Of a stretch of DNA of 64,000 nt, positions 1,119 through 46,194 are shown piece after piece; the stretch's first letter is position 1, and every line of letters starts with the position of its first letter. The notes beneath the pieces were generated by a model. The model made no database searches, was not told where the DNA came from, and saw nothing but the letters and a program-made list of their open reading frames with translations. This stretch comes from Candidatus Dormiibacterota bacterium (GTDB taxonomy: Bacteria; Chloroflexota; Dormibacteria; Aeolococcales; Bog-877): NCBI GenBank assembly GCA_049279335.1, contig JBAPNX010000007.1:7013-71012 (forward strand), given 5' to 3'. The position numbers and the translations under genes are program-made.

Positions 1119-2090
1119 TCAGCCGAACAGGCCGCTGAGATTGCCGTTGGCAGGACTTGCCGCCGCTCCCAGCAGAGGTAAGCCATAGGCTTCCTCGATG
1201 GTCCGGAGGGTGCCGTAGTGGTCTCCGGTCGCTGACACGATCCCTCTTCCTACTGCGTTCTTGGAAATTATCAGCTCCGGGATCTGCCCCCCGACGGCAT
1301 CGCTGCAGCAGCTGCCAGAGGACTGGGCATCGTTCTCGTCCATGGTGACGATCACCGTGCTGCGGTATTGGGTAAACCACGCCGAAGACAGGACGGGCGC
1401 GAGGTTGGTCTGGAGCCAAGAGTTCCCGTCGGATACGGTCCCGTCGTGCATGTCGTCCATCAGGTTGGGAGTAATCCATACAAAGTCCGGGGCGCTGGCG
1501 CTATTGAGGGCAGAGATCAATCCCGAGGGACCCGGGTAGGGCAGCACATGACTGCCGCAGCTCGCGCCGAGAACGTCGGCATAGTGGACGAAGGGGTTGT
1601 GCTTCCCGGCATACTCGCCTGAGCTTGACCCGGTGTAACAAGCCGAGGGCATGGACTCCATATAGGCGATCCACGGGATTCCGCTTACGTTGAACTGGTT
1701 AGCCAGGTTGTCGACTGAGTAGGTGCCGCAGGAATCCGACTCGCAGCCCTGGGTCGACCCGGAGGTGATGGCGAGGTAATTGGGCAGGCTGGGGTGATAC
1801 ACACCGTACCAGTTGTTAGCCGAGGCGTACTCGGACGCCAGTGAGCAGATATAGGGGTCGGCCGAGCAGTCGCCCAGCGTGGCTGCGTATCCCTGGTTCT
1901 CCTCCATGATGATCATGACATGAGGCGCGCCCGAGGCAGCTGTCGGAGTGGGCACCGAGCTAAAAGCTGGAGACGGGCTCGCCGAAGGGCTGGCGGAGGG
2001 GACCCGGTGGCCAACTGCACTACAGCCCACCATCACGGCACCAGCGACGAGACTAAGGGCAAGCGCCACGCCGCTGGGACGGGTCAGCAC
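1119..2090 (-). CDS. Phosphoesterase family protein (acid phosphatase / non-haemolytic phospholipase C family), lipoprotein
   Basis: 323 aa; lipobox 'MVGCSA'; motifs 'IIMEENQ', 'HPSLPNY', 'NLMDDMHDG' typical of the PF04185 phosphoesterase family. Confidence 0.7.
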   Translation of the reverse strand: MLTRPSGVALALSLVAGAVMVGCSAVGHRVPSASPSASPSPAFSSVPTPTAASGAPHVMIIMEENQGYAATLGDCSADPYICSLASEYASANNWYGVYHPSLPNYLAITSGSTQGCESDSCGTYSVDNLANQFNVSGIPWIAYMESMPSACYTGSSSGEYAGKHNPFVHYADVLGASCGSHVLPYPGPSGLISALNSASAPDFVWITPNLMDDMHDGTVSDGNSWLQTNLAPVLSSAWFTQYRSTVIVTMDENDAQSSGSCCSDAVGGQIPELIISKNAVGRGIVSATGDHYGTLRTIEEAYGLPLLGAAASPANGNLSGLFG

Positions 2091-2340
2091 TGGCGAATTA
2101 TGGTCCAGGCGCAGTTCACCTGACCGAGGCGCTGCACCGGCTACTCGTCTGGGGTTGGGGAAGCGGGAGCGCTAAGACGCAGACGCGCTAGCCTTGTGGC
2201 TGTCACCGTGGCGACCTACGCAAGCCCCGGCGCGGAATTCTAAACTGATGGCTACATGGGACGTGGGTGCCAGTCCCGACGGATTTCCTTTGGGACCGGC
2301 CAAACGCTACCTCGGCTGATCTAGCGGTCATCGCGCCCAG

Positions 2341-2570
2341 ATGCACCCCATTTCGGAGCGGTCGGCCTCCCGCGACCGCCCAGGTTTGACAGCCTAAGTG
2401 ACGGCCTGGCGAGCGGACGACTGGCTCATGGGATGGACGCGACTGGACGGCGATCGGGCAAATCGATCTCACACTGAACGTCTGCGGGCGTGGCTGGACG
2501 ACCTCCCCTAAACTTGCAAACGGCTGGGGCCGCAAGGCTCCTCGGGGTTCGAATCCCCGTCCCTCCGCCA
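2341..2570 (+). ncRNA. tmRNA-like structured RNA (partial or divergent ssrA) ending in tRNA-like T-arm + acceptor + CCA
   Basis: 3' end 'CTCGGGGTTCGAATCCCCGTCCCTCCGCCA' is a canonical T-stem/T-loop (GGTTCGAATCC) plus 7-nt acceptor strand, discriminator and CCA. Upstream there is a short reading frame ending '...GLTA*' followed by 'TAAGTGACGGCCTGG', which resembles the post-tag region of actinobacterial tmRNA as I recall it ('TAAGCGACGGCTAG'), plus a downstream 'GCGACTGG..GATCGG' block. No 5' acceptor partner (GGRGGGR) was found. Confidence 0.4.
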
Positions 2571-2976
2571 TCTTGTGGGGTATAGCGTTGGTGGTGGAAG
2601 TAGCACACTCGGATCGTCCTTCCGCGCCTGGCGACTACGTGGACGTGAGGTGTGCAGCTCGCCCGACCTCTATCGTCAGGTGTTCTTGGTCCCACCACTT
2701 CACGCCGGTGCTACCCGCCAGCCTGACGCGGCAACAAGTGAACCCGCTCGGAGCGACGCAGATGGCTCTCGGAGCCCCATAGTGGGCCCGTGCCGCCACT
2801 ACCTCCTGAATGGCGGGACTCCACATCGCTGCCCCAGTGCTTAGCCTGGACCGCAATGGCGTGATCGGTCCCTCCATCAACCACAACGTCCGCGCCGAAG
2901 TCCTCGCTACGCGGCGTGGTCTCGACCCGTTCGTGACCCAGGGCGAGACAGAATCCCGCCAGGTGGAGGCAGCCTC

Positions 2977-3948
2977 ATGAGAGCAGTAGTCTTCGACAAA
3001 TACGGGCCTCCGGAGGTTCTGCGCCTCGAGGAGGTCGAGCCGCCTGTGCCGAGGGATGACGAGGTGCTGGTCAGGATCCACGCCGCGACGGTCAGCCGCA
3101 CGGATACCGGGCTTCGCGGCGCCGACTTGTTCATCTCACGCCTTGTCACGGGTCTCCTCCAGCCCAGGCGCAGGATCCTGGGCAGCGACTTGGCCGGGGA
3201 AGTCGAGGCGGTCGGCGCAACAGTGACCGAATTCGAGGTCGGTGACCACGTATTCGGCCTCAATCCCTGGAAGTTCGGCACCCATGCTGAGTTCGTCTGC
3301 ATGCGGGCGAGCGCGGCACTGGGGCTCATGCCGTCCGATATGAGCTTCGATGAGGCGGCAGCGATCTGCGACGGGGCGATCCTGGCGCTGAATGCCCTAA
3401 GGCCGGCAGAACTTCGACAGGGGCAGAGGATCCTCGTGTATGGCGCCTCCGGATCCATCGGCACCGCTGGGGTCCAGCTGGCCCGAGCCTTCGGCGCCGA
3501 CGTCACCGCGGTGTGCAACACGAAGAACTTCGAGCTTGTGAGATCGCTGGGAGCCGACGAGGTCATCGACTTCACGCAGGAAGACTTCACCAGGAATGGC
3601 CGAACGTACGACGTCATATTCGACTCAGTCGGCCACCAATCGTTCAAGCGGTGTCGGGCCTCACTGAAGCCAGGCGGGTTTTACGTTGCCACCGACCACA
3701 TGTACAACCTGGTGCTCGCCTTGTGGACCGCGCGGATCGGAGACAAGCGAGTGGTGTTCCCCCTACCGCCGCGCTTTACGAAGGAGGACGTCGCGTTCCT
3801 CAAGGAGCTAATCGAGGCGGGGAAATACCGAGCCGTCATCGATCGGCGATACCCGTTGGAGCAGGTGGTTGAGGCAACCCGCTACGTCGAAACGAAGCAG
3901 AAGATCGGAAACGTCGTTCTGACTGTCAGCCACGACAATGCGACCTGA
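2977..3948 (+). CDS. NADPH:quinone oxidoreductase / zinc-type alcohol dehydrogenase (MDR superfamily)
   Basis: 323 aa; 'MRAVVFDKYGPPEVLRLEEVEPPVP' N-terminus, Rossmann 'VYGASGSIGTAGVQLA', typical zeta-crystallin-like architecture; RBS-like GGAGG upstream. Confidence 0.85.
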   Translation: MRAVVFDKYGPPEVLRLEEVEPPVPRDDEVLVRIHAATVSRTDTGLRGADLFISRLVTGLLQPRRRILGSDLAGEVEAVGATVTEFEVGDHVFGLNPWKFGTHAEFVCMRASAALGLMPSDMSFDEAAAICDGAILALNALRPAELRQGQRILVYGASGSIGTAGVQLARAFGADVTAVCNTKNFELVRSLGADEVIDFTQEDFTRNGRTYDVIFDSVGHQSFKRCRASLKPGGFYVATDHMYNLVLALWTARIGDKRVVFPLPPRFTKEDVAFLKELIEAGKYRAVIDRRYPLEQVVEATRYVETKQKIGNVVLTVSHDNAT

Positions 3949-3989
3949 CGGCCTTCCCTTCTCGCTCTGGTGGATGACTCCGAGCGTGT

Positions 3990-4145
3990 AGCTCGCGGAT
4001 TTTACGGCCTAAGCGACGGCCTAGCGAACGGACGGGTAGCTGAGGCAGGGACCCCACTGGACGTCGATCGGGCCCCGTCGATCTCAATTTGCATGTCGCT
4101 GGAAGGGTCTGGACGACTTCCCCTGAACTTAAAAACCAGGTCCAC
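3990..4145 (+). repeat. Second copy of the tmRNA-like ~150-nt element (copy B)
   Basis: Shares with 2385-2530: '...TTTTACGGCCTAAGCGACGGCCTAGCGAACGGACG...CCACTGGACGTCGATCGGGCCCCGTCGATCTCA...CTGGACGACTTCCCCTGAACTTAAAAAC' (blockwise ~70-80% identity, same order). Confidence 0.4.
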
Positions 4146-4793
4146 TCACGTGCATATGTCCGGGATGCTCTGCTTTGTCACCCTGCCAGCTCGGATCACG
4201 GAGTCGTCCAGGGCTCGACGCTACTCGCCGCCGCGTAGTGGCGCCTCAGCACATAGCGCCCGGGTTTTAGGTCGAACTGGTGGCTCTGGTGGGCGGCGAC
4301 GGACTCAGACGCGACCAGTTCCCTGGGAAACAGAAACGAGACGCCTGCGCCCGGATTAGGGATCGACTTCACTGTTCCCCGCAGCACAGTAGCCGCCCCG
4401 GCGACGAAGCCCTAGCCTTTCGCTACTGGGAGGCCTGAGCAATCATCGATACCTCCCACAACCACTCCTCGCCGGTCGGGACATTGGCTGGGATCGAAAG
4501 GGTCTCGCGTGCCTGGCAGCCGACCAACGCCAACACTGGGCCAGCTAGAAGGACAGCGCGCCACCATCCGCTACCGGCTGAGCGCCACGCCATTGAGCGC
4601 CGGATGCCTTGCCGAGTCCGATATACCGTCTAAAAGTATGCTGCTAGCCAGCCGGGAGGTTACGCTCACAGTTCCGGTTCCGCGGTTGTGAAAACGGGCG
4701 GAGCGACGAGCCGTGCTGACCTGGTCGGCAGTCAGCCAGACCAGGCTGAAGAATTCGTGCGTGTCCCGAAGGATTCCCTTTGGGGCCACTCCC

Positions 4794-5138
4794 TCAGCCG
4801 AAGAGCTGCACACTTTGAATCAGTCCGTCCGCGACTCGGTACGCCGCGGCTGCATGCACCTCGGTTGGCATACCGGGCAGGCCGAAACCGGTGATGAACT
4901 CCTCGTCGAGGACAAACGGACCCACCTCGATCCGAGCACGGATCTCGGCATGCAACTTAGGGCTCTGCCCGAATAGCTCGCCATAGCGAGCGCGGATCTC
5001 AGTCTGTCCATCGGCTAGCAAGCTTCCGTCCGGCTGAGAAATCCGGGCGTCGGCAGAGTAGCAGGCGACGAATGCGTCGAGAAGGCACAGATTGTAGGCA
5101 GCGATCTGTCGGTCGACCAGCTCAGTCGCTTGGCTCAT
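4794..5138 (-). CDS. NTF2-like / SnoaL-like small protein
   Basis: 114 aa, no TM; size and composition of ketosteroid-isomerase-like fold proteins; flanked by ~35-bp direct repeats. Confidence 0.45.
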   Translation of the reverse strand: MSQATELVDRQIAAYNLCLLDAFVACYSADARISQPDGSLLADGQTEIRARYGELFGQSPKLHAEIRARIEVGPFVLDEEFITGFGLPGMPTEVHAAAAYRVADGLIQSVQLFG

Positions 5139-5331: not shown

Positions 5332-6738
5332 TCAGCCTTCGACTCCGGGCTGGGTGCTCCGTTCCCACGCCTGCGCTCCCATCTGGATGGCATCCCAAGG
5401 GCTTCCAAGCGGCGGGGCATATGAGAGGTCAAGGTCGCTGATGGCATCGACCGTCATGGAGTGGAAGATCGCCGTGGCGGCGATGTCGATCCGTTTGGCG
5501 ACCTCAGCGTTGCGGTTTCCAAAGAGCTGGACTCCTAACAGTCGTCCGGTACGCCGATCCCCGGTGTAGCGCATCGAGATCGGATGACTCCCTGGGTAGT
5601 ACGCCTTGTGGTCGTTGGCCTCGGACTCCACGGTGACCGGATCGTAACCAGCCGCCGTTGCCTCGTGGTCACGAAGTCCAGTGCGGGCGGCTGCTGTCTC
5701 AAAGACTTTTACCACCTGGGTTCCAAGACTGCCCTGAAATTCTCGCGTTCCCCCCAGCGCGTTCTCCCCGGCAACCCGCCCCTGCTTATGGGCGGTAGTC
5801 CCTAGCGGGAGATACGACTCTCCCAGGAGGCGGTGGTAGGTGACGACACAATCTCCGGCCGCGAACACACCCTCAAGATTGGTTCGCATCTGCCTATCAA
5901 CCGAGATTGCCCCTCGAACGCTGAGGTCAGCACCTGCTGACTTCGCCAAATCCGTCTCCGGACGGACGCCCACGACCACGAGGATCAGGTCGGCAAACTG
6001 GGTAATAGGTTCCCCGTCAGCGAGTTCCGCGGTTACTTCGAGTCGAGCTGCAGCACCGGGGGCCGCAACAGAGATGAGTCGCACCGTGGTTCCCGTCAAC
6101 ACCTGGACTCCGTGATCAACCAGCTCAGCACGAATGAGTCGGCCAAGCTCTGGGTCAACGGTGGGGAGGACTTCTGGGAGTTGCTCGATCTGGGTCACGG
6201 ACAGGCCACGGGCAACTAGAGCCTCTGCCATCTCGAGGCCGATGTAGCCGGCTCCAACGACGATGGCGTTCGCCGGTGAAGTCTTCTCTAAAGTCGCCAT
6301 GACGGCAAAGGTGTCGCCCATGGAATGAAGCAGATGGACGCCTTGATCGACGCCCAGCGCATCGGGTCCGACCAATCCAGCGATCGGCGGCTGGACAGGG
6401 ACCGCGCCCGTTCCCACGACTATCGAGTCATATTCGAGCAGGTCATTTTCTCCGTAGCGATTGGTAACGAGTAGCCGCCGCTCGCCGACATCAATTCGTC
6501 GTGCCGTGGTATCTAGCCGAAGCGTCATTCCTGTCGCTTCTAGCTCCCCCACCGTTCGGTGCGCCAAGTTGTGCCAGTCGGTGACCTCGCCGGAGACGTA
6601 GTAGGGAATGCCGCAGATCGAAAAGTTTGGATAACCGTCTGCGACCACTACCGTGACGTCGGCCCGGGGATCGAGTTCTAGGGCTCGAAGTGCCGCGCTG
6701 ATCCCGGCATCACTACCGCCGACCGTAATGAGACGCAT
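5332..6738 (-). CDS. FAD-dependent pyridine nucleotide-disulfide oxidoreductase (CoA-disulfide reductase / NADH oxidase family), last gene of the ars operon
   Basis: 468 aa; N-terminal 'ITVGGSDAG' FAD fold, redox Cys in 'NFSICGIPYY', second Rossmann 'VVGAGYIGLEMAE', C-terminal dimerisation domain. Confidence 0.8.
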   Translation of the reverse strand: MRLITVGGSDAGISAALRALELDPRADVTVVVADGYPNFSICGIPYYVSGEVTDWHNLAHRTVGELEATGMTLRLDTTARRIDVGERRLLVTNRYGENDLLEYDSIVVGTGAVPVQPPIAGLVGPDALGVDQGVHLLHSMGDTFAVMATLEKTSPANAIVVGAGYIGLEMAEALVARGLSVTQIEQLPEVLPTVDPELGRLIRAELVDHGVQVLTGTTVRLISVAAPGAAARLEVTAELADGEPITQFADLILVVVGVRPETDLAKSAGADLSVRGAISVDRQMRTNLEGVFAAGDCVVTYHRLLGESYLPLGTTAHKQGRVAGENALGGTREFQGSLGTQVVKVFETAAARTGLRDHEATAAGYDPVTVESEANDHKAYYPGSHPISMRYTGDRRTGRLLGVQLFGNRNAEVAKRIDIAATAIFHSMTVDAISDLDLSYAPPLGSPWDAIQMGAQAWERSTQPGVEG

Positions 6739-6803
6739 CGGTCACTCCTCTTTGCGCTGGCATCGGTGTCAAGCTCCGGCCATGGACGAGGATGTCGCCT
6801 TTG

Positions 6804-7430
6804 TTAGCCGCCAACTGCAAGCTCAGCGGCCAGAGACTTCACCCGCTCGTCGATCTCGTCGCGGATACGGCGTACCGTCGGGAGTGACTTGCCCTGTGGG
6901 TCTTCAAGCTCCCAGTCGAGGTAACGCTTACCGGGGTAGAGGGGACAGGCGTCCCCACAACCCATGGTGACGACGACATCAGCGGCGCGGATCACCTCTT
7001 CCGTGAGCGGCTTGGGGAAGTGCTTGGAGATGTCCAAACCTATCTCGCTCATTGCCTCGACTACGGCGGGATTTAGAGTCGAAGCCGGCTCGGAACCGGC
7101 TGAGAGAACGTGGACACTGCCTCGAGCGTGATGATCGAGGAGAGCAGCTGCCATCTGCGAACGACCGGCGTTGTGGACGCAGACGAACAGGACCTCGGGT
7201 ACCTTGGACTCGATCCGTCCCTCAACGAGGGCGGTGGCACGTAGCCGGTCACGGGCGAAGCGCTCAGCGAAAGTTGGCAGGAAGTTGGGAACGGAGGCTG
7301 TCTCGGCCAGCTCCTGGTAGCACTCCAGCACACACGCCTCAACCGTCTGTGGGCTGAAGACGCCGGCGAACTCAGAGACGAGGGTGTTGGTCTCTGACTG
7401 GAGTCGCTGCTGCACGTTGAAAATGCTCAT
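6804..7430 (-). CDS. arsC: Arsenate reductase, LMW-PTP type, with an N-terminal ~70-aa extension
   Basis: LMW phosphatase P-loop 'CVHNAGRSQMA' (CX5R) plus downstream Cys in 'MGCGDACP'; start ATG 7430 overlaps the stop of the upstream aquaporin gene (ATGA). Confidence 0.75.
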   Translation of the reverse strand: MSIFNVQQRLQSETNTLVSEFAGVFSPQTVEACVLECYQELAETASVPNFLPTFAERFARDRLRATALVEGRIESKVPEVLFVCVHNAGRSQMAAALLDHHARGSVHVLSAGSEPASTLNPAVVEAMSEIGLDISKHFPKPLTEEVIRAADVVVTMGCGDACPLYPGKRYLDWELEDPQGKSLPTVRRIRDEIDERVKSLAAELAVGG

Positions 7431-8179
7431 GAGGCTGTCTCCTCTGATATGGATCCGTGGGGCACGACAACGACCTCGGCGATCTCGCGAGCATCGGGAT
7501 GAAGGTAACGGATGGCTACCCAAGCGATAGCCGCGCCGCATAGCTCAGCGGCGATGAACGGGACCACCGACGCTGGGCTGATCCCCGAGAACGTATTGGA
7601 GAGAGTGCGGGCCAAGGTCACTGCAGGGTTGGCAAAGCTGGTCGACGAGGTGAAGAAGTACGCCCCAGTAATGTAGGCGCCGACCGCGAATGGAACGACG
7701 GTGCTCCTGCCACTCCGCGTTATACCGAAGATGACCAGAAGCAGCCCGAACGTGGCCACGACCTCGCCAAGCCAGAGACCAGGGCCCGATCGGAGATGGA
7801 CCGAAAGACTGACCGGGGCGAGAGAAAACATAAGGTTGGCTACGATGACGCCAACGACGGCGCCGCCGATCTGGGCGGTGATGTAGGCGAGGAGCTCGCG
7901 CCGACCTAGGCCACCGAGAGCGGCGTCGACAAGCGAGACCGCTGGATTGAGGTGGGCGCCGGAGACCGGGCCTAGCGCGAGGATGATCACGGCCAGGGCA
8001 CAGCCGGTGGCCACGGCGTTCTCGAAAAGTTCGAGCCCGGCGTCGCCAGGACTCAGCCGCTGTGCGGCGATGCCCGAGCCTATCACCGCCAATAGCAGCA
8101 GGGCGGTGCCAAGAGTCTCGGCCACCGCCTTGCGCAGCAACGACGGCGCCCTCAGGTGGTGGTCGACTGGCATCGGCAA
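7427..8179 (-). CDS. Aquaporin / aquaglyceroporin (MIP family), probable arsenite channel
   Basis: 250 aa; six TM segments; two NPA boxes 'HLNPAVS' and 'FANPAVT'. Confidence 0.85.
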   Translation of the reverse strand: MPMPVDHHLRAPSLLRKAVAETLGTALLLLAVIGSGIAAQRLSPGDAGLELFENAVATGCALAVIILALGPVSGAHLNPAVSLVDAALGGLGRRELLAYITAQIGGAVVGVIVANLMFSLAPVSLSVHLRSGPGLWLGEVVATFGLLLVIFGITRSGRSTVVPFAVGAYITGAYFFTSSTSFANPAVTLARTLSNTFSGISPASVVPFIAAELCGAAIAWVAIRYLHPDAREIAEVVVVPHGSISEETAS

Positions 8180-9063
8180 CCAACCCCCGCAGTGGCCTGA
8201 AGGCCGCAGCAGTCGCTCTTAGAAGAGGAGTCGCAGCAGATTGATTGGGCGGAAGTGTCACAGCAGGACGGATTTGGTTTGCGGGCTCGGACGATGGCCG
8301 AGCCCGCATGCCTGTGCACGCGGTGGGTCTCTGTGATCTCGGTGTCGGTGAGACCGGCATCCTCGAGCGCCTGCTCGAACTCTCGGCGGGTCAGCGCTCC
8401 AGCAACGCAACCCGTGAATGCCTCCACATCTCTCCGCGTGGCTTCGTCCATGTCGTCGTCGGCGATCACGTCGGAAACCGCGAAGCGCCCGCCTGGCCGT
8501 AGAACACGCGCGGCTTCCCGCAGTACCCGGGGTTTGTCAGTTGACAGGTTGATGACGCAATTGGAGATCACCACGTCGACGGACTCCGCCGGGAGCGGAA
8601 TGTCCTCTATCCGGCCACGCAACCAATGCACATTGGCGAGGCCAGCTTTCCGCTGGTTCTCCACTGCAAGGGTGAGCATCTCGTCGGTCATATCGAGACC
8701 GTAGACCCGACCCGTCGGACCAACCCGTCGGGCTGAGAGGAGCACATCGATGCCACCGCCCGAGCCGAGATCTAGTACCGTCTCCCCGTCATGCAGCTCA
8801 GCCATCGCGGTCGGGTTGCCGCACCCCAGGGATGCGAGCCGCGCGGTTTCAGGCAGCTCATCACGCTGCTGCGCGGAGTAAAGGCTGGCACCGAACAGGT
8901 CGCTGGCGTCGCCCTCAGGCAGGGTGCCGCAGCATCCCGATTCGGCTGCGGGGATGGCACAGCCGCTTGCGGCGGTGGCGCTCACCTCGCGGGCGGCGAT
9001 GGCGTAGCGCTCGCGGACGGCATCGCGGAGCCGATCGGAGTCGGTCGGTTGATCTTGGGACAT
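8152..9063 (-). CDS. arsM: Arsenite S-adenosylmethionine methyltransferase
   Basis: SAM motif 'VLDLGSGGGIDV'; conserved arsenic-binding cysteines ('SGCAIP', 'GCCG'); Cys-rich C-terminal tail; divergent from arsR. Confidence 0.85.
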   Translation of the reverse strand: MSQDQPTDSDRLRDAVRERYAIAAREVSATAASGCAIPAAESGCCGTLPEGDASDLFGASLYSAQQRDELPETARLASLGCGNPTAMAELHDGETVLDLGSGGGIDVLLSARRVGPTGRVYGLDMTDEMLTLAVENQRKAGLANVHWLRGRIEDIPLPAESVDVVISNCVINLSTDKPRVLREAARVLRPGGRFAVSDVIADDDMDEATRRDVEAFTGCVAGALTRREFEQALEDAGLTDTEITETHRVHRHAGSAIVRARKPNPSCCDTSAQSICCDSSSKSDCCGLQATAGVGCRCQSTTT

Positions 9064-9137
9064 CGTCACCTGCAACTGCATCCGCTGGTGCAGGTTCCGC
9101 AAGGACAATCACAGGACATTCGCCAGAGGCTCCTATA

Positions 9138-9195
9138 TTGACTAAGATCGATGTATGATGAGGAGATGGTACTCGGTAGATCGACCTATGTCAAT
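9138..9195. promoter_or_regulatory. Imperfect palindrome ATTGACtaaGATCGA..N..TCGAcctatGTCAAT in the arsR/arsM divergent promoter (candidate ArsR operator)
   Basis: Inverted repeat arms at 9138-9152 and 9181-9195, located between the divergent arsM and arsR genes. Confidence 0.3.
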
Positions 9196-9571
9196 GCATA
9201 GAAGCCACGCCGCGACCACGGTTGTGAAATTCGGTGAGTTTGCGGCCCCGGAGCGGATCAAGGGCTGCTCCCAGCCGGTGGCCCCACCTTTGGACGCCAC
9301 CCAAGCCAGCGAGGTGGCGGCCCTGGGAAGGGCTCTCGGAGACCCGACCCGGGTACAGATCATTCACATCCTGGTCGCGGCCACCGAGCCTGTCTGCGTC
9401 TGTGACTTCACTGCCGCGTTCGACCTTGGCCAGCCCACCATCAGCCACCATCTCGCGAAGCTCCGCCAAGCCGGCCTCGTGACCTGTTTCAAGCGAGGCC
9501 TCTGGGCCTTCTACCAGCTCAACCCCGAGATGTCCGATCGAGCCAGACTGGCGGTGCAGCTGATTCCCTGA
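9155..9571 (+). CDS. arsR: ArsR/SmtB family metalloregulator
   Basis: HTH 'RVQIIHILVAA...CVCDF...QPTISHHLAKLRQAGLV' with metal-binding CVC motif; start may be the internal ATG at 9188/9194. Confidence 0.8.
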   Translation: MMRRWYSVDRPMSMHRSHAATTVVKFGEFAAPERIKGCSQPVAPPLDATQASEVAALGRALGDPTRVQIIHILVAATEPVCVCDFTAAFDLGQPTISHHLAKLRQAGLVTCFKRGLWAFYQLNPEMSDRARLAVQLIP

Positions 9572-9574
9572 CCA

Positions 9575-9720
9575 CGGCTCGCAGATTTGACAGCCTAACC
9601 TGCGGACGGCTGGCTCACGCGACGAACGCCACTGGACGTCCGGAAGGCAATCCTTCGGGACCGCACGAAGTACCATCCCGATCAGGGTGAAGCGATCGAA
9701 TCGGACGTGAAAGCGGGATC
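9575..9720 (+). repeat. Third, more divergent copy of the tmRNA-like element (copy C)
   Basis: 'GATTTGACAGCCTAACCTGCGGACGGCTGG...GCCACTGGACGTCCGGAAGGCAATCCTTCGGGA' matches the TTTGACAGCCTAA / GACGGC / CACTGGACG blocks of copies A and B, with a compensatory hairpin CCGGAAGG/CCTTCGGG. Confidence 0.3.
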
Positions 9721-37802: not shown

Positions 37803-39794
37803 TCAGCTGCCCGGATGCCAGGCGATGCTGATGGCGATCCCCGCCACCAAAAGGAGGCCGAAGCTCGCGTGCAGCTGGGCCGTCTCGAGGTCGATCTTGG
37901 CGATAGCCCGCTGCTGCCCGGCGGCGCCCAGCTCGGAAGCGTTGAGGGCGCGCACTAAGAGTGGCAGGGAGAGCAGCGCCAGCAGGCTGAGACGGGGCAG
38001 GACACCGATCGCGACGGTTATCGCCAAGGCGATGAAGGCTCCTACCAGCAGGACCACGTAGAGGCGGTAGGCGAACCTGCGCCCAACCCGGATCGAGACC
38101 GTGCTGATCCCCGCCCGAGCGTCCTCGCCGATGTCGCGCCATTCGTTCCCGTGGAGGATGGCTGTGACCAGGAGCCCGATAGGAACGCTGACTGCGCCGG
38201 CCTCCCCGGAAAGGTGGCCGGTGATGGCGAAATAGGCTCCCAGCACCATCAGCGGACCCATCAGCAGGAAGACCAGGGGCAGACCAGCTGCCCGGTACTT
38301 GTACTGCAGTGGCGGCGCCGTGTAGCCCCAGCCCCCGATCAGGCCGACGGCTCCGATCACTGCCAGCGGCCAGCCGCGCACGGCGATCAGCACCACGCCT
38401 ATGAGGACTGCAATAAGGAATGCCGAGCCGGCTAGGACGAACGCCTCCCGCTCCCGGACCCTGCCGGTAAGCAGAGCCTGGCTTGCCCTCGGGGACGTGA
38501 TGGCATCAACTCCTTTGCGCACGTCATAGATCTCGTTGGTCACATTGGTGCCGACCTGGAGTAGCACTGCCCCGACCAGGACCAGGGCGAAAAGGGGCCA
38601 GCCGAACTGGTGGTGAACGGCCGCGAGGGCGGCAGCTGCCGAGACCGGCACCACCGAGGCGGTGAGGGCAAAGGGACGGGTGACCTCGACCCAGCCCCGA
38701 AGCCGGCGGACGAATCCAACGCCCTGGCCAGAGTCGATCGCCCGTCGCTGACGCGATCCGGGGGCCGTCCCCAAGGCCCCGGCCGAGCCATAAAGCACCG
38801 CCGCATCGAGCACGGCCTCCACCTGGGCATGCTCCTGAACCACCGGCTGCAGGACGGGAAGATCCATCCCAGCTTGGTTGAAGCGCTCGGCACCCGCTGC
38901 CACCTCCTCTCGGGTGCCGCAGAGCAGGAAGGCGTCCACCAGTTCGTCCGGGATCAGCTGGGCTGCACGGTGGTAGTCCTCGGCTCTCCAGGCGGCCATG
39001 ATCGGTCCGCGCAGGGCCGGGTCCATCCCGGCCCTGCGCATGGCGACGTCAGTCTGGACCGCGAGCATGTAGATGGCAAAGGGTTCGCGCTTAGCCCGAT
39101 CGAGGGCCGCACGGCGGCTGCTGTCGATGAGCGACAGCAGATAGCCCCCGATCGCGATCGAATCGGGATCCCGCCCGGCCGCGGTCGCCGCCGCCTTGAT
39201 CCGTCTAGATGCCAGCGCCACAGCCTCGATCGGCTCGGCCGGTCTGGCCAGATAGCCGTCAGCCACCCTTCCCGCCAGCTCGTGGAAGGCCCGGCGATAC
39301 CCCGCGGCCCACAGCGGTACCTGGTGCACCGGCGGGAACATTGGCTCGAGCTCAGGTACGCCTTGGGCTCCCAGAGCCAAGCGCTCACCTCGCCACAGCC
39401 GCCGCAGTTCGAGCATGGTCTGCTCGACTTTGGCTATCGCCGGCTCGGGCTGGTAGGGGATCCCCATCTGCGCTAGTCGCAGCGGCAGCGCGGTACCCAA
39501 GGCCAAGGTGATGCGTCCAGGAGCCAGGTCATCGAGGGCACTGATGGTCATAGCCAGCAGCACCGGGTGGCGGGTGCTGGGGTTGAGCGCACCCAGGCAG
39601 ATGCGCAGCCGCGGCACCGTGGTGGCGACCGCGGTGGCGTAGGTGACGGCATCTCGGGCGAAGTAGGACTCGTGGAACCAGAGCGAATCCACTCCAGCCC
39701 GCTCCGCCAGCTCGGCCTGGCGAATCGCATCGCGAACCTCACCCTGGGCGTTGAGTCCCAGACCGACCGGCCGCGCCAGCGAAGGCATCGTCAC
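37803..39794 (-). CDS. Fusion: luciferase-like (LLM, probable F420/flavin-dependent) oxidoreductase + MenA/UbiA-type polyprenyltransferase
   Basis: N-terminal ~330 aa LLM TIM-barrel; C-terminal 8-9 TM domain with 'NEIYDVRKGVD' (MenA N(D/E)xxDxxxGxD) and 'EWRDIGEDARAG' second Asp-rich motif. Confidence 0.7.
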   Translation of the reverse strand: MTMPSLARPVGLGLNAQGEVRDAIRQAELAERAGVDSLWFHESYFARDAVTYATAVATTVPRLRICLGALNPSTRHPVLLAMTISALDDLAPGRITLALGTALPLRLAQMGIPYQPEPAIAKVEQTMLELRRLWRGERLALGAQGVPELEPMFPPVHQVPLWAAGYRRAFHELAGRVADGYLARPAEPIEAVALASRRIKAAATAAGRDPDSIAIGGYLLSLIDSSRRAALDRAKREPFAIYMLAVQTDVAMRRAGMDPALRGPIMAAWRAEDYHRAAQLIPDELVDAFLLCGTREEVAAGAERFNQAGMDLPVLQPVVQEHAQVEAVLDAAVLYGSAGALGTAPGSRQRRAIDSGQGVGFVRRLRGWVEVTRPFALTASVVPVSAAAALAAVHHQFGWPLFALVLVGAVLLQVGTNVTNEIYDVRKGVDAITSPRASQALLTGRVREREAFVLAGSAFLIAVLIGVVLIAVRGWPLAVIGAVGLIGGWGYTAPPLQYKYRAAGLPLVFLLMGPLMVLGAYFAITGHLSGEAGAVSVPIGLLVTAILHGNEWRDIGEDARAGISTVSIRVGRRFAYRLYVVLLVGAFIALAITVAIGVLPRLSLLALLSLPLLVRALNASELGAAGQQRAIAKIDLETAQLHASFGLLLVAGIAISIAWHPGS

Positions 39795-42039: not shown

Positions 42040-45000
42040 ATGATGCCTTCTGGTCATCCCGATATGAGACTGCATCGGTGGCTAGGCCCACCGTTGCTCG
42101 GTGCGGCCTTCGTCTTGGCGGCAGGTGCTGTCATCGCCTTCTTCCTGGCTCTGGGCGTGGGCTTCGGCAGCGCCGCGGTGGGCACCCTCACCCCCCCGAC
42201 CGCTGTGACGGGAGCACAAACGGCCAATTCGACGGTCGACGTCAGTTGGACCGCTCCCAGTCCACTGCCACCGGGAGGCTCTCTCGACGGCTATTTTGTT
42301 GAGCGGTTTTTGGGCTCGACCCCAAGCAGTGCCTGCGGCAGCTCGCCGACTGCCCTGCTCGCCGGGTCGCTCACGAGCTGCAGCGACACTTCTGTCCCTG
42401 TTGGTACCTACACCTACAGGGTCACCGCCGTCTGGCGTTCATGGTCGGCGACCAGTAGCCCGAGCGGCTCAGTAGCGGTGCTGGCCGCATCCGCGAGCGG
42501 CCTGACGCCGGCGACGGGCACGGTGGGCTCCTCGGCCCAAATTACCGCCCAGCGCTTCGCGGCCAGCTCGGCGCTCACCGTCACCGTAGACGGTAGCGCC
42601 GCGGTCATAACCGCGGGGGGAACTACCGGCGCCAACGGGTCCTCGACGGTGACTTTCACCGTTCCGCCCGTTCCCAACGGCGCCGAGACGGTGATGGTGG
42701 CCGACTCCGCCGGGAACACGGCCACTTCCGCAACCAACTTCACGGTGAGCGCCTCGGCGACCGGCCTGAGTCCATCCACCGGCGCTGTGGGGTCCTCAGC
42801 TTCAATCCTCGCGCAGGGCTTTGCCGCCAACTCGGCCCTGAGTGTGAAGGTGGAGGGAACCGCCGCCACCATCACCGGCGGGGCCAGCACCGGAGCCAAC
42901 GGGTCCTCGACGGTGACATTCGTCCTTCCCGCAGTGCCTCATGGCGCCCAGAGCGTGGCGGTGACGGACGCCGCCGCGAACACCGCCACGTCGACCACGA
43001 ACTTCACCGTCACCGCCTCGGCTGCCAACCTGAGTCCGACCACTGGCAGCGTGGGCACGACCGGGGTCACGATCCTGGCTCAGGGCTTCGTCGCCAATCA
43101 CGCCCTCACCGTGAAGGTCAACGGCACCGCGGCCACGATCACTGCCGGAGGCACCACCGCCACCAACGGTGCGTCCACGGTGACGTTCACCATCCCGGCG
43201 GCGGCCAACGGCTCCGACAGCGTCGTCGTCTCCGATGGGACTAACTCAGCGACCTCAGCGACCAACTTCACAGTGACCGCCTCGGCCACAGCGCTCGCGC
43301 CGAGCAGTGGCGCGGTCGGCGCCTCGGCTACGATCACGGCTCAGGGCTTCGCCGCCAGCTCGGCGCTTGCGGTCACCGTTGGCGGCACCAGCGCCACCAT
43401 CACCTCGGGCGGCACCACCGGGGTTACCGGCTCAGCCACGGTGACCTTCACCATCCCCAGCCTCTTCAATGGCTCCTACGGCGTTGTGGTCACCGATTCC
43501 GCCTCCAACACGGCGACCTCGGCGACCAGCTTCACGCTGACCGCTTCGGCGACAGGACTCAGCCCGGCGACCGGCACCGTGGGAGCTTCCGCATCGATCC
43601 TGGCCCGAGGGTTCGCTCCCAGCTCGGCACTTACGGTCACCGTCGGCGGTACGAGCGCCACCATCACCGCGGGCGGTACCACCGGCGCCAACGGCGCCTC
43701 CACCGTCAACTTCACCATCCCAGCGATTCCGCATGGCGCGCAGTCCGTGGTGGTGACCGACGCCTCGTCCAACTCCGCGACCTCAGCGACCAACTTCACA
43801 GTGACCGCCTCGGCCACAGGGCTCGGCCCCACGGGTGGACCTGTGGGCACGACCGGTGTCACGATCCTGGCCCAGGGCTTCATCGCCAGTCATGCCCTCA
43901 CCGTGAAGGTCAACGGAACCGCGGCCACCATCAGCTCCGGTGGGACCAGCGGCACCAATGGGTCGTCCGCAGTCACCTTCACCATCCCGGTCGTGCCCAA
44001 CGGCGCCCAGGTGGTGACCGCCTCGGACGGCACCAATACGGCGACCTCGGCGACCAACTTCACGGTGTCTGCCTCGGCCAAGGGGCTCACTCCCGCCACG
44101 GGTGCCGTGGGAACTGCCGGAGTCAAGATCACAGCTCAGGGATTTGCCCCGAGTTCGGCCTTGACCGTCAGCGTAGGTGGGGTGAACGCCACTATCACCT
44201 CGGGTGGCACCACCGGTGCCACTGGCTCGGCCACGGTGAACTTCACCATCCCCGCGCTGCCCAATGGGCCCCAGACCGTGGTGGTGTCCGATGCCGCGGC
44301 CAACACTGCGACCTCAGCCACCAACTTCACGGTGAGCGCCTCGGCCACCGGACTCAGCCCGGCAAACGGGGTGGTGGGAGCCAGCGCGCAGATCACAGCC
44401 CAGGGATTTGCGGCCAGTTCCGTCTTGACGGTGACGGTGGGCGGGGTCTCCGCGACGATCACGTCCGGGGGAACCTCGGGAGCCAATGGGTCGTCCACCG
44501 TCAGCTTCGCCATTCCCACGGTGCCCCACGGGACCCAGAGCGTGGTGGTGACTGACGCCTCCTCCGACACGGCCACCTCGGGCACCAACTTCACGGTGAA
44601 TTCGTCGGCCACCGAGCTAAGCCCGTCCAGCGGAGTTGTGGGGACGACTGGAGTCACGATCCTGGCTCAGGGGTTCGTCGCCAGCCATGCGCTCACCGTC
44701 AAGGTCAACGGAACCGCGGCCACCATCACCTCTGGCGGTACCAGCGGCACTAACGGAGCCTCGATGGTGACCTTCACCATCCCCGCGGCTCCCAACGGTA
44801 CGGAGACCGTGATCGTCACCGACGGCTCCAACCCCGCCACTTCCGCCACCACCTTCACTATCTCTGCCACGGCCACTAACCTCAGCCCGAGCAGTGGCGC
44901 GATCGGGTCCAATGCCACCATCACAGCGCAAGGATTTGCGGCCACCTCGGCTCTCACGGTGACCGTCGGAGGCACCTCAGCAACCATTACTGCCGGAGGC

Positions 45001-46194
45001 ACGACCAATGCCAACGGGTCCGCGACGGTGACGTTCACCATCCCGGCCCTAACCCATGGCTCTTACAGCGTGGTGGTGTCCGACGCTTCGGCCGACACCG
45101 CCACCTCGGCGGCCAACTTCGCGGTGACCGCCTCAGCGACCAGCCTCAGCCCGGTCACCGGCGCCATCGGATCCTCGTCTTCAATCCTCGCCCAAGGCTT
45201 CGCTCCCGCATCGACCCTGACCGTGAACGTCGGTGGTACCGCCGCGACCATCACCGCCGGTGGTACAACCGGGGCCAACGGGACCTCCACGGTTTCCTTC
45301 ACCATTCCGACCTTGCCTCACGGTGCTCAGAGTGTCGTGGTGACGGATGCGTCGGCCAACACCGCCACCTCTGCGACCAGCTTCACTGTCACCGGCTCCG
45401 CAACCGGTCTCAGCCCGAGTAGCGGTCCGGTTGGCACGACTGGGGTAACCATCCTGGCTCAGGGTTTCGCGGCCAGCTCGGCCCTCACCGTGAAGGTGAA
45501 CGGGACCGTCGCAACCATCACCGCCGGTGGCACCACCTCAAGCAGCGGTGTCTCGACTGTGACCTTCACCATCCCGGCAGTCCCCCACGGCGCTCAGACC
45601 GTGTCAGTGACCGACGCCTCGGGCGACAGCGCCACCTCGCTGACCAGCTTCACCGTCTCCGCTGCCGCAACCAACCTCACGGTGACCAGCGGCAACGTGG
45701 GCACCTCCGGTGTCAAGATCACGGCCCAGGGCTTCGCAGTCAGCTCAGCTCTGACAGTGACCGTGGGCGGGACCAGTGCCACCATCGCCTCCGGGGGCAC
45801 CACTGGCGCTAATGGGTCGGCGACCGTGAGCTTCACCATCCCCGCCGTACCGAACGGCCCCCAGAGCGTGGTGGTGACGGATGCCTCTGGTAACAGCGCC
45901 AGCTCCGTGACCAACTTCACCGTAACCGCGTCGGCCACCGGACTTAGTCCGGCCAGCGGCGCCGTGGGCAGCTCCGCTCAAATCACCGCGCAGGGCTTCG
46001 CAGACGGCTCGACTCTGACGGTCACAGTGGGCGGGACGGCCGCCACCATCACCGCCGGCGGTACAACCGGCGCTAACGGCTCATCCCCGGTGACCTTTAC
46101 CATCCCAGCCCTCGCCAACGGCTCCTACACGGTGGTGGTGAGCGACGCCTCGGGCGACACTGCCACCTCGCCGAACAAGTTCACTGTTCCCTGA
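42040..46194 (+). CDS. Giant membrane-anchored surface protein: N-terminal TM, FN3-like domain, 14 tandem IPT/TIG-like (~94 aa) repeats
   Basis: 1384 aa; repeats with 'G..G...ITAQGF......V.VGG..A.I......G..TVTFT.P..P.G...V.V' IPT/TIG pattern; Ala/Thr/Ser/Gly-rich; three repeat subtypes cycling. Confidence 0.85.
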   Translation: MMPSGHPDMRLHRWLGPPLLGAAFVLAAGAVIAFFLALGVGFGSAAVGTLTPPTAVTGAQTANSTVDVSWTAPSPLPPGGSLDGYFVERFLGSTPSSACGSSPTALLAGSLTSCSDTSVPVGTYTYRVTAVWRSWSATSSPSGSVAVLAASASGLTPATGTVGSSAQITAQRFAASSALTVTVDGSAAVITAGGTTGANGSSTVTFTVPPVPNGAETVMVADSAGNTATSATNFTVSASATGLSPSTGAVGSSASILAQGFAANSALSVKVEGTAATITGGASTGANGSSTVTFVLPAVPHGAQSVAVTDAAANTATSTTNFTVTASAANLSPTTGSVGTTGVTILAQGFVANHALTVKVNGTAATITAGGTTATNGASTVTFTIPAAANGSDSVVVSDGTNSATSATNFTVTASATALAPSSGAVGASATITAQGFAASSALAVTVGGTSATITSGGTTGVTGSATVTFTIPSLFNGSYGVVVTDSASNTATSATSFTLTASATGLSPATGTVGASASILARGFAPSSALTVTVGGTSATITAGGTTGANGASTVNFTIPAIPHGAQSVVVTDASSNSATSATNFTVTASATGLGPTGGPVGTTGVTILAQGFIASHALTVKVNGTAATISSGGTSGTNGSSAVTFTIPVVPNGAQVVTASDGTNTATSATNFTVSASAKGLTPATGAVGTAGVKITAQGFAPSSALTVSVGGVNATITSGGTTGATGSATVNFTIPALPNGPQTVVVSDAAANTATSATNFTVSASATGLSPANGVVGASAQITAQGFAASSVLTVTVGGVSATITSGGTSGANGSSTVSFAIPTVPHGTQSVVVTDASSDTATSGTNFTVNSSATELSPSSGVVGTTGVTILAQGFVASHALTVKVNGTAATITSGGTSGTNGASMVTFTIPAAPNGTETVIVTDGSNPATSATTFTISATATNLSPSSGAIGSNATITAQGFAATSALTVTVGGTSATITAGGTTNANGSATVTFTIPALTHGSYSVVVSDASADTATSAANFAVTASATSLSPVTGAIGSSSSILAQGFAPASTLTVNVGGTAATITAGGTTGANGTSTVSFTIPTLPHGAQSVVVTDASANTATSATSFTVTGSATGLSPSSGPVGTTGVTILAQGFAASSALTVKVNGTVATITAGGTTSSSGVSTVTFTIPAVPHGAQTVSVTDASGDSATSLTSFTVSAAATNLTVTSGNVGTSGVKITAQGFAVSSALTVTVGGTSATIASGGTTGANGSATVSFTIPAVPNGPQSVVVTDASGNSASSVTNFTVTASATGLSPASGAVGSSAQITAQGFADGSTLTVTVGGTAATITAGGTTGANGSSPVTFTIPALANGSYTVVVSDASGDTATSPNKFTVP
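42460..46190 (+). repeat. Tandem coding repeats: ~282-bp unit x14, organised as an ~846-bp three-unit super-repeat
   Basis: Subtype order (TVTVGG / SVKVEG-or-TVTVGG / 'GVTILAQGFVA.HALTVKVNG') recurs about four times; many antisense ORFs in the track are repeat artefacts. Confidence 0.85.

Follow-up and report, generated by a model that had tools for sequence, protein, structure and literature searches.

A displaced 3' fragment of tRNA-Ser(UGA) as a probable insertion scar downstream of serS in Dormibacterota

Fragments of tRNA genes (tDNA) that have been displaced from an intact cognate gene mark the ends of genomic islands, and tandem arrays of such fragments occur (PMC4383910). The anticodon loop is a canonical sublocation of integrase crossover, as illustrated by the 2083 anticodon-centred islands of Islander, the class A sites (PMC4383910). 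In Dehalococcoides, the ssrA gene carries tandem islands, some of which lack an integrase, and a conserved motif lies upstream of the repeat; the integrase-less modules have been proposed to be cis-mobilizable elements (PMC3146451). Displaced fragments are thus a well known and ordinary kind of feature. The instance described here comes from a poorly studied phylum, Candidatus Dormibacterota, to which homologues of its serS gene assign the organism, and was found in a 64-kb stretch of DNA that we refer to as the window.

The initial annotation of the window had drawn attention to a T-arm, an acceptor strand, a G and a CCA at positions 2543-2570 of the plus strand, and these elements are present as described; the corresponding 28-mer occurs only once in the window and had 0 matches in 100 shuffles. 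They form the end of a longer sequence that can be read, part by part, as the 3' portion of a tRNA-Ser(UGA) gene:

2513-2570, plus strand: displaced 3' fragment of tRNA-Ser(UGA), gene positions 33-90
2513-2519, plus strand: anticodon-loop remnant CTTGCAA, with the anticodon mutated from TGA to TGC
2520-2524, plus strand: 3' strand of the anticodon stem
2525-2542, plus strand: long variable arm with a GCAA loop (GGCC-GCAA-GGCT), as in a class II tRNA
2543-2559, plus strand: T-arm CGGGG-TTCGAAT-CCCCG
2560-2566, plus strand: 3' acceptor strand TCCCTCC
2567, plus strand: discriminator G
2568-2570, plus strand: CCA

Against positions 33-90 of the intact tRNA-Ser(UGA), 55 of the 58 bases are identical, and blastn aligns the two sequences with 93.7% identity over 63 nt (E=7e-21). 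The three mismatches fall in the anticodon, the anticodon stem and the variable region, and G73 is the serine discriminator. Being part of a 55/58 copy of a genuine tRNA gene from the same contig, the tRNA-like end far exceeds what chance would produce. The anticodon loop opens at gene position 33, and this is exactly the base at which identity sets in. The fragment is flanked by a phosphoesterase gene on the minus strand (1119-2090) and a zinc-dependent dehydrogenase gene on the plus strand (2977-3948), which leave 886 bp between them.

The intact gene was found on a 319-kb metagenomic contig that includes the window and was recognised by exact matches of two window proteins (ena:ERZ25039540:contig_21926; the locus on it is denoted L007). 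It occupies L007 2720-2809, equivalent to window positions -7043 to -6954 (called by ARAGORN; Rfam tRNA, 55.5 bits, E=6e-10), starts nine bases past serS (L007 1439-2809 for serS and the tRNA together) and is on the same strand as the fragment, 9,466 bp upstream of it. The adjacency of serS and tRNA-Ser(UGA) is kept in about 25 Dormibacterota loci, a conserved linkage which, judging from gene order, could imply co-transcription. Between the intact gene and the fragment lies one further feature:

L007 6486-6549: second and more decayed tRNA-Ser fragment

This upstream fragment is 90.9% identical to the intact tRNA-Ser over 66 nt (blastn), with one deletion in the T-arm; its identity begins at gene position 27-28 instead of 33, and the sequence forming its left arm shows no relation to the ~130-nt repeat described below. 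With one intact gene and two fragments, the order is therefore serS, tRNA-Ser, 3.7 kb, upstream fragment, 5.7 kb, and the fragment at 2513-2570. The intact cognate tDNA thus resides on the same replicon, with the displaced fragment downstream in the same orientation. In these respects, namely an intact cognate tRNA located upstream in the same orientation, a direct repeat from the anticodon loop to the 3' end, non-syntenic cargo and a tandem array of fragments, the locus resembles the Islander tDNA islands (PMC4383910). Of the readings offered by the initial annotation, that of an attL/attR-type remnant of an integrative element is retained, with the target corrected from ssrA to tRNA-Ser.

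The missing 5' side of the fragment bears on whether it could act as an RNA gene. The initial annotation had noted that no complementary 5' strand lies nearby and that this is not a standard tRNA, which we corroborate: no heptamer in 2101-2545 pairs with TCCCTCC at 7/7 positions, and neither ARAGORN nor Rfam reports a tRNA. Within 1501-2545, the sole 7/7 partner is GGAGGGG at 1995, inside the phosphoesterase ORF on the opposite strand. No tRNA 5' half was found upstream of the fragment by Smith-Waterman alignment (score 14, equalled by 594 of 1000 shuffles). A degenerate 5' half or an intron-split tRNA upstream was also considered, and was rejected with the alignment score at chance level. A complete cloverleaf is absent, only positions 33-90 being present, and the fragment does not qualify as a functional tRNA gene.

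In tmRNA, pairing of the two ends gives an acceptor stem like that of tRNA-Ala (G3:U70, A73-CCA), and the tag is read from a resume codon up to a C-terminal degron of the (A/V)AA type; helix 5 and pseudoknots come next. The tags of tmRNA are not known to start at an ATG. The initial annotation had listed a genuine but divergent ssrA among its readings and had named ARAGORN and Rfam as the means of checking it; neither detects a tmRNA or a tRNA at the fragment. Over the 64-kb window, ARAGORN predicted 0 tRNAs and 0 tmRNAs, and Rfam searches at gathering scores gave no matches. A permissive Rfam search (E<=10) of 1700-3000 yielded no tmRNA-family or tRNA match, just three small models that cover the generic T-arm and acceptor at 18-23 bits. 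Local ARAGORN runs with default settings, with -ps and with mildly relaxed thresholds made no calls. With thresholds lowered to 80%, a 'permuted tmRNA' with a nonsense 27-residue tag was returned, and at 60%, equally spurious tmRNA calls appeared on a control locus with an ordinary tRNA-Ser (the relaxed runs used the permuted-tmRNA and intron options). The low-threshold calls are regarded as noise because they are matched on this control. The region 2381-2570 is no more stable than dinucleotide shuffles on either strand (z=+1.6 and +1.5), and a promoter and terminator scan of 2000-4900 revealed nothing above expectation.

A divergent tmRNA, in one piece or permuted, with an odd tag and 5' end, would explain the T-arm and the CCA. 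The T at acceptor position 70 would permit a G3:U70 pair, the short frame upstream ends in LTA-TAA, and ARAGORN does produce the permuted call, if only with thresholds dropped to 80%. We nevertheless consider this reading extremely unlikely, given that ARAGORN (default or -ps) and the Rfam tmRNA families, even at E<=10, find nothing, that the acceptor strand has no 5' partner in 2101-2545, that the discriminator is G and not A, and that the entire 3' part is the 55/58 copy of tRNA-Ser, including a class II variable arm for which there is no place in the tRNA-like domain of tmRNA. The supposed body of the RNA is, moreover, a DNA repeat, copied at distances of 1.6 and 7.2 kb, and folds worse than shuffles (z=+1.6). 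What the fragment has in common with tmRNA (RF00023 and the permuted families) is confined to the generic T-arm, the CCA and a chance short frame with its stop codon, whereas the acceptor partner, a covariance-model match and a pseudoknot signal are lacking. An ssrA pseudogene, or an att remnant of ssrA origin, has a similarly negligible probability. It would fit with ssrA being the most favoured integration target (PMC4383910) and with the superficial likeness to actinobacterial ssrA on which the initial annotation had remarked, but the donor that was found is tRNA-Ser(UGA), down to the class II variable arm and G73, and the tmRNA models have no local match of any length. Judged by its sequence, then, the fragment is not an RNA gene, and it derives from tRNA-Ser(UGA), not from the tRNA-Ala-like domain of a tmRNA.

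The features that had been taken for a tmRNA body belong to a repeat of about 130 nt, here called the arm repeat, that occurs in the vicinity of the fragment:

2341-2397, plus strand: 18-codon frame MHPISERSASRDRPGLTA with its stop, the supposed tag ORF, judged incidental
2381-2512, plus strand: arm repeat copy 1 (the repeat itself at about 2385-2512), adjoining the crossover point and holding the GTGACGGCCTGG and GCGACTGG..GATCGG blocks
3996-4137, plus strand: arm repeat copy 2 and tail, the repeat itself at about 4000-4124 (z=28 versus shuffles)
9578-9646, plus strand: arm repeat copy 3, partial, with the match at 9582-9638 (z=11.8), 11 nt past the arsR stop

The short frame that had been described as starting at ATG 2341 and ending in GLTA and TAA does exist, but the order of tag ORF, stop and helix 5 that was said to mirror actinobacterial ssrA is coincidental. 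The end of the frame also differs from the (A/V)AA type of tmRNA tags. Copy 1 contains two tandem RGCCTAR motifs about 12 nt apart, together with CTGGACG repeats, and the TAA of the frame sits in the repeated motif CAGCCTAAG; because the stop falls inside this tandemly repeated word, the 'tag' is incidental. Likewise, the GCGACTGG..GATCGG block, which had been thought to resemble tmRNA, is part of the local repeat and has no tmRNA similarity. The tag-like part is non-random only because it is a member of this repeat.

Copy 2 ends in a tail, CTTAAAAACC (4128-4137), that matches the tRNA anticodon loop and stem at nine of ten positions before diverging. In addition, a 24-nt match to the arm repeat, GTTTGCCAGCCTAAGTGACAGCCT, is located 64 nt past the intact tRNA-Ser (z=9.6). 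All copies are on the plus strand and confined to the tRNA-Ser locus; a pattern scan of the other 54 kb of the window and of the relatives' loci yielded no further ones. In viral and metagenome contig collections, the pattern had 52 matches, all limited to the 27-nt pattern and therefore due to chance. RNAalifold on the three copies gave -15.9 kcal/mol with a positive covariation penalty, so that a structured RNA is not supported, and Rfam had no match to the arm repeat or its other copies. The arm repeat was not found outside the locus, and it is therefore from its position that a role as a recombination arm is proposed. Adjoining the crossover as it does, the repeat would be element-side arm DNA, comparable to the P arm of an attR junction, and possibly carries protein-binding repeats.

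The fragment might also be read as a tRNA-like 3' module with a function in some non-coding or messenger RNA, for instance a signal for RNase P/Z processing or stabilisation of the mascRNA/sX4 type. In its favour, sX4 (19.5 bits; gathering score 70) and mascRNA (18.6 bits; gathering score 42.5) have sub-threshold Rfam matches over the T-arm and acceptor, and the sequence is identical across seven contigs of different samples. These scores are, however, far under gathering and driven by the generic T-arm, and the samples agree because they contain the same strain, not because the sequence is conserved. There is neither a promoter-like site nor an excess of structure, the acceptor strand is without a 5' partner, and the anticodon loop and stem are mutated, as expected of a neutral relic. 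This reading appears very unlikely.

The best explanation, in which we have considerable confidence, is that the fragment is an attR-type direct-repeat scar of site-specific insertion into the anticodon loop of the serS-linked tRNA-Ser. The incoming elements would have borne their own copy of the tRNA 3' part; this copy would have remade an intact tRNA-Ser at the left junction, and the older 3' part would have been shifted rightwards, to the far side of the insert. A series of events of this type, presumably catalysed by an integrase and occurring in the sequence sketched here, would yield the array of intact tRNA, 3.7-kb module, upstream fragment, 5.7-kb module and the fragment at 2513-2570. 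The array possibly continues with a 1.5-kb module and then the ars cluster, their ends being marked by copies of the arm repeat.

Relatives carry other cargo at the same site. In the closest complete chromosome (OY969577.1; locus L010), where serS is 88% identical and tRNA-Ser is intact, a 100% repeat of tRNA-Ser positions 33-87 is found 4.1 kb downstream of the intact gene. Since this repeat covers positions 33-87, its left boundary, the first base of the anticodon loop, equals that of the fragment. The cargo of L010 is unrelated to that found here and includes genes for TetR, a glycosyltransferase, an F420H2-dependent reductase and an ArsR-like protein. The words left of the crossover are alike here and in L010, namely CTAAA/CTTG, CTGAA/CTTA and TAGAA/CTTG (YTRAA/CTTG, the slash denoting the crossover), and the L010 arm includes 26 nt that are similar to the arm repeat (z=5). 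As a separate observation, the tRNA-Ser repeat of L010 (11372-11480 and 15483-15600) extends about 110 nt beyond the CCA, and on the minus strand this extension has the look of the C-terminus of an IS3/rve-type transposase (…ALGYLTPNEFEDL), as recognised by eye. In locus L029, ArsR-rhodanese and MFS transporter genes are enclosed by two full copies of tRNA-Ser at a distance of 3 kb. For the eleven genes located between the tRNA and the fragment, no counterparts were found downstream of tRNA-Ser in about 35 Dormibacterota loci. Insertions at tRNA-Ser are recurrent and their cargo is non-syntenic, which makes the site a recurrent hotspot of insertion. None of the relatives provided a clean empty site; in L021, a locus of another species, the sequence shared extends only about 37 nt past the CCA, beyond which synteny is gone.

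A further alternative is a partial duplicate of tRNA-Ser without a mobile element, produced by local segmental duplication or illegitimate recombination and devoid of att function. An integrase is absent nearby, the L010 repeat, with its extension past the tRNA end, looks like a plain segmental repeat, and the two fragments share their downstream flank, all of which would be compatible with plain duplication. However, the same anticodon-loop onset, at a canonical crossover sublocation (PMC4383910), is observed in two species with unrelated cargo. Words next to the junction and the arm sequences are conserved as well, synteny is lacking for the inserted genes, and at this very locus a sister strain carries a fresh site-specific insertion. 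We therefore regard plain duplication as unlikely and favour the insertion scar.

Searches for mobility genes bear on how the modules might have moved. No integrase, recombinase or transposase was detected in any of the module ORFs with Pfam, PHROGs and NCBIfam, and none of them was found in the modules of relatives or among the window ORFs examined, including large ORFs in the rest of the window. By inspection of their sequences, the module ORFs encode multi-pass membrane or secreted proteins. With no recognisable integrase, the modules are therefore taken to be either decayed islands or cargo dependent on a recombinase acting in trans, and for the same reason the locus, although it works like an attR junction within a tandem island array, is classed as the scar or remnant of an island rather than an intact integrative element. 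The junction at the fragment is a scar, unless a recombinase encoded elsewhere can still use it.

It is in this respect that the locus departs from the described systems. Lacking an integrase gene in every module, the modules here would not pass the Islander integrase filter, and compared with Islander islands they are small (1.5-5.7 kb) and hold membrane, secreted and resistance genes only. The Dehalococcoides ssrA islands (PMC3146451) are similar in having multiple direct repeats of the target 3' end downstream of the intact gene, a conserved sequence just upstream of the repeats and a strain-variable region, and in including modules without integration genes, which in Dehalococcoides were proposed to be cis-mobilizable. 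The target, in contrast, is tRNA-Ser here and ssrA in Dehalococcoides, and the repeat is 58-63 nt long and starts in the anticodon loop, as opposed to 20 nt starting in the T-loop. Unlike in Dehalococcoides, a serine-recombinase integration module was found in none of the modules.

The 3' flank of the fragment contains a further recurrent sequence:

2571-2607, plus strand: spacer TCTTGT and 31-nt motif GGGGTATAGCGTTGGTGGTGGAAGTAGCACA, recurring after tRNA-Ser 3' ends

The pattern GGGGTATAGCG-N11-AAGTAGCACA is found six or seven bases past the CCA of the fragment, of the upstream fragment (L007 6553-6583) and of the intact tRNA-Ser in L021 (15028-15058), which is directly followed by the motif. 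The viral contig collection had 0 matches to the 31-nt motif, and no inverted copy was found in the window. The motif is either ancestral flank from the attB side or the solo terminal repeat of elements whose family targets this site.

A sister strain (MAG GCA_052325525.1) differs from the window at this point. Its contig L008 (12326-12670) is identical to the window up to the 31-nt motif and then diverges, and its contig L005 (1-348) consists of unrelated sequence, the reverse complement of the same motif variant, CTCCGCCATCTTGT, and the window sequence from 2577 on. These two junctions are the signature of an extra insertion in the sister strain, with the fragment directly on one side and the solo motif on the other. 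The insertion is bounded by 32-nt perfect inverted repeats (GGGGTATAGCGTTGGGCGTGAAAGTAGCACAG), of which the window has the solo motif copy only, and by a 14-nt direct duplication (CTCCGCCATCTTGT) that corresponds to the tRNA 3' end and the spacer. It is not a fold-back artefact because the two inner ends differ. A partial 61-aa ORF in the insertion has no homologues and no Pfam match. Contigs from other samples break at window positions 2498, 2561 and 2593; together with the sister insertion, these breaks indicate that the site still varies between strains. The strain-specific insertion is the only indirect sign of excision or integration activity.

A more far-reaching possibility, to which we give little credence, is a cassette-accretion system of Dormibacterota at the serS-linked tRNA-Ser(UGA), in which integrase-less modules would be moved by an unrecognised recombinase or one acting in trans, and a second type of element, with the 32-nt inverted ends, would target the tRNA 3' end. 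The modules may then be units of 1.5-6 kb bounded by tRNA 3' fragments and conserved arms, and their cargo may comprise envelope proteins, regulators, transporters and arsenic resistance. If this were true, 2513-2570 would be a live recombination site, not a dead scar.

Downstream of the fragment, the other copies of the arm repeat suggest how far the insertion array may extend. The stretch 3996-4137 would be the decayed right junction of a 1.5-kb module that holds only the ADH gene (2977-3948). The 845 bp at 3949-4793, between convergent genes, are without a convincing ORF or Rfam match (E<=1), and copy 2 is at their left end. Further on, an arsenic-resistance cluster (5332-9571) encodes a CoA-disulfide-reductase-like protein, an ArsC of the low-molecular-weight (LMW)-phosphatase type, an MIP channel, an ArsM-like methyltransferase and ArsR. 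The cluster (5.3-9.6 kb) ends 11 nt before an arm-repeat copy and may therefore be an acquired module; perhaps it is a further one ending in the arm repeat. The presence of this copy suggests, but does not show, that the ars cluster also arrived by insertion.

More generally, a tRNA-like 3' end without a 5' partner should be compared with the tRNA genes of the same genome before a novel RNA is proposed. The tRNA-Ser(UGA) past serS is a hotspot of gene gain in uncultured Dormibacterota, with insertions in at least two species, and the fragment supplies precise junction sequences for recombinase hunting and island mapping in Dormibacterota MAGs.

Two other ORFs of the window are worth recording. 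A 663-aa minus-strand ORF (37803-39794) matches a luciferase-like monooxygenase over residues 13-311 and a UbiA prenyltransferase over residues 381-615, and may represent either a fusion protein or a pair of neighbouring genes joined by the mechanical ORF call. A 1384-aa ORF (42040-46194), which probably encodes a large surface or adhesin-like protein, contains at least 14 tandem repeats of 264 nt (88 aa) with matches to IPT/TIG domains; its exact product has no record in the protein collection searched.
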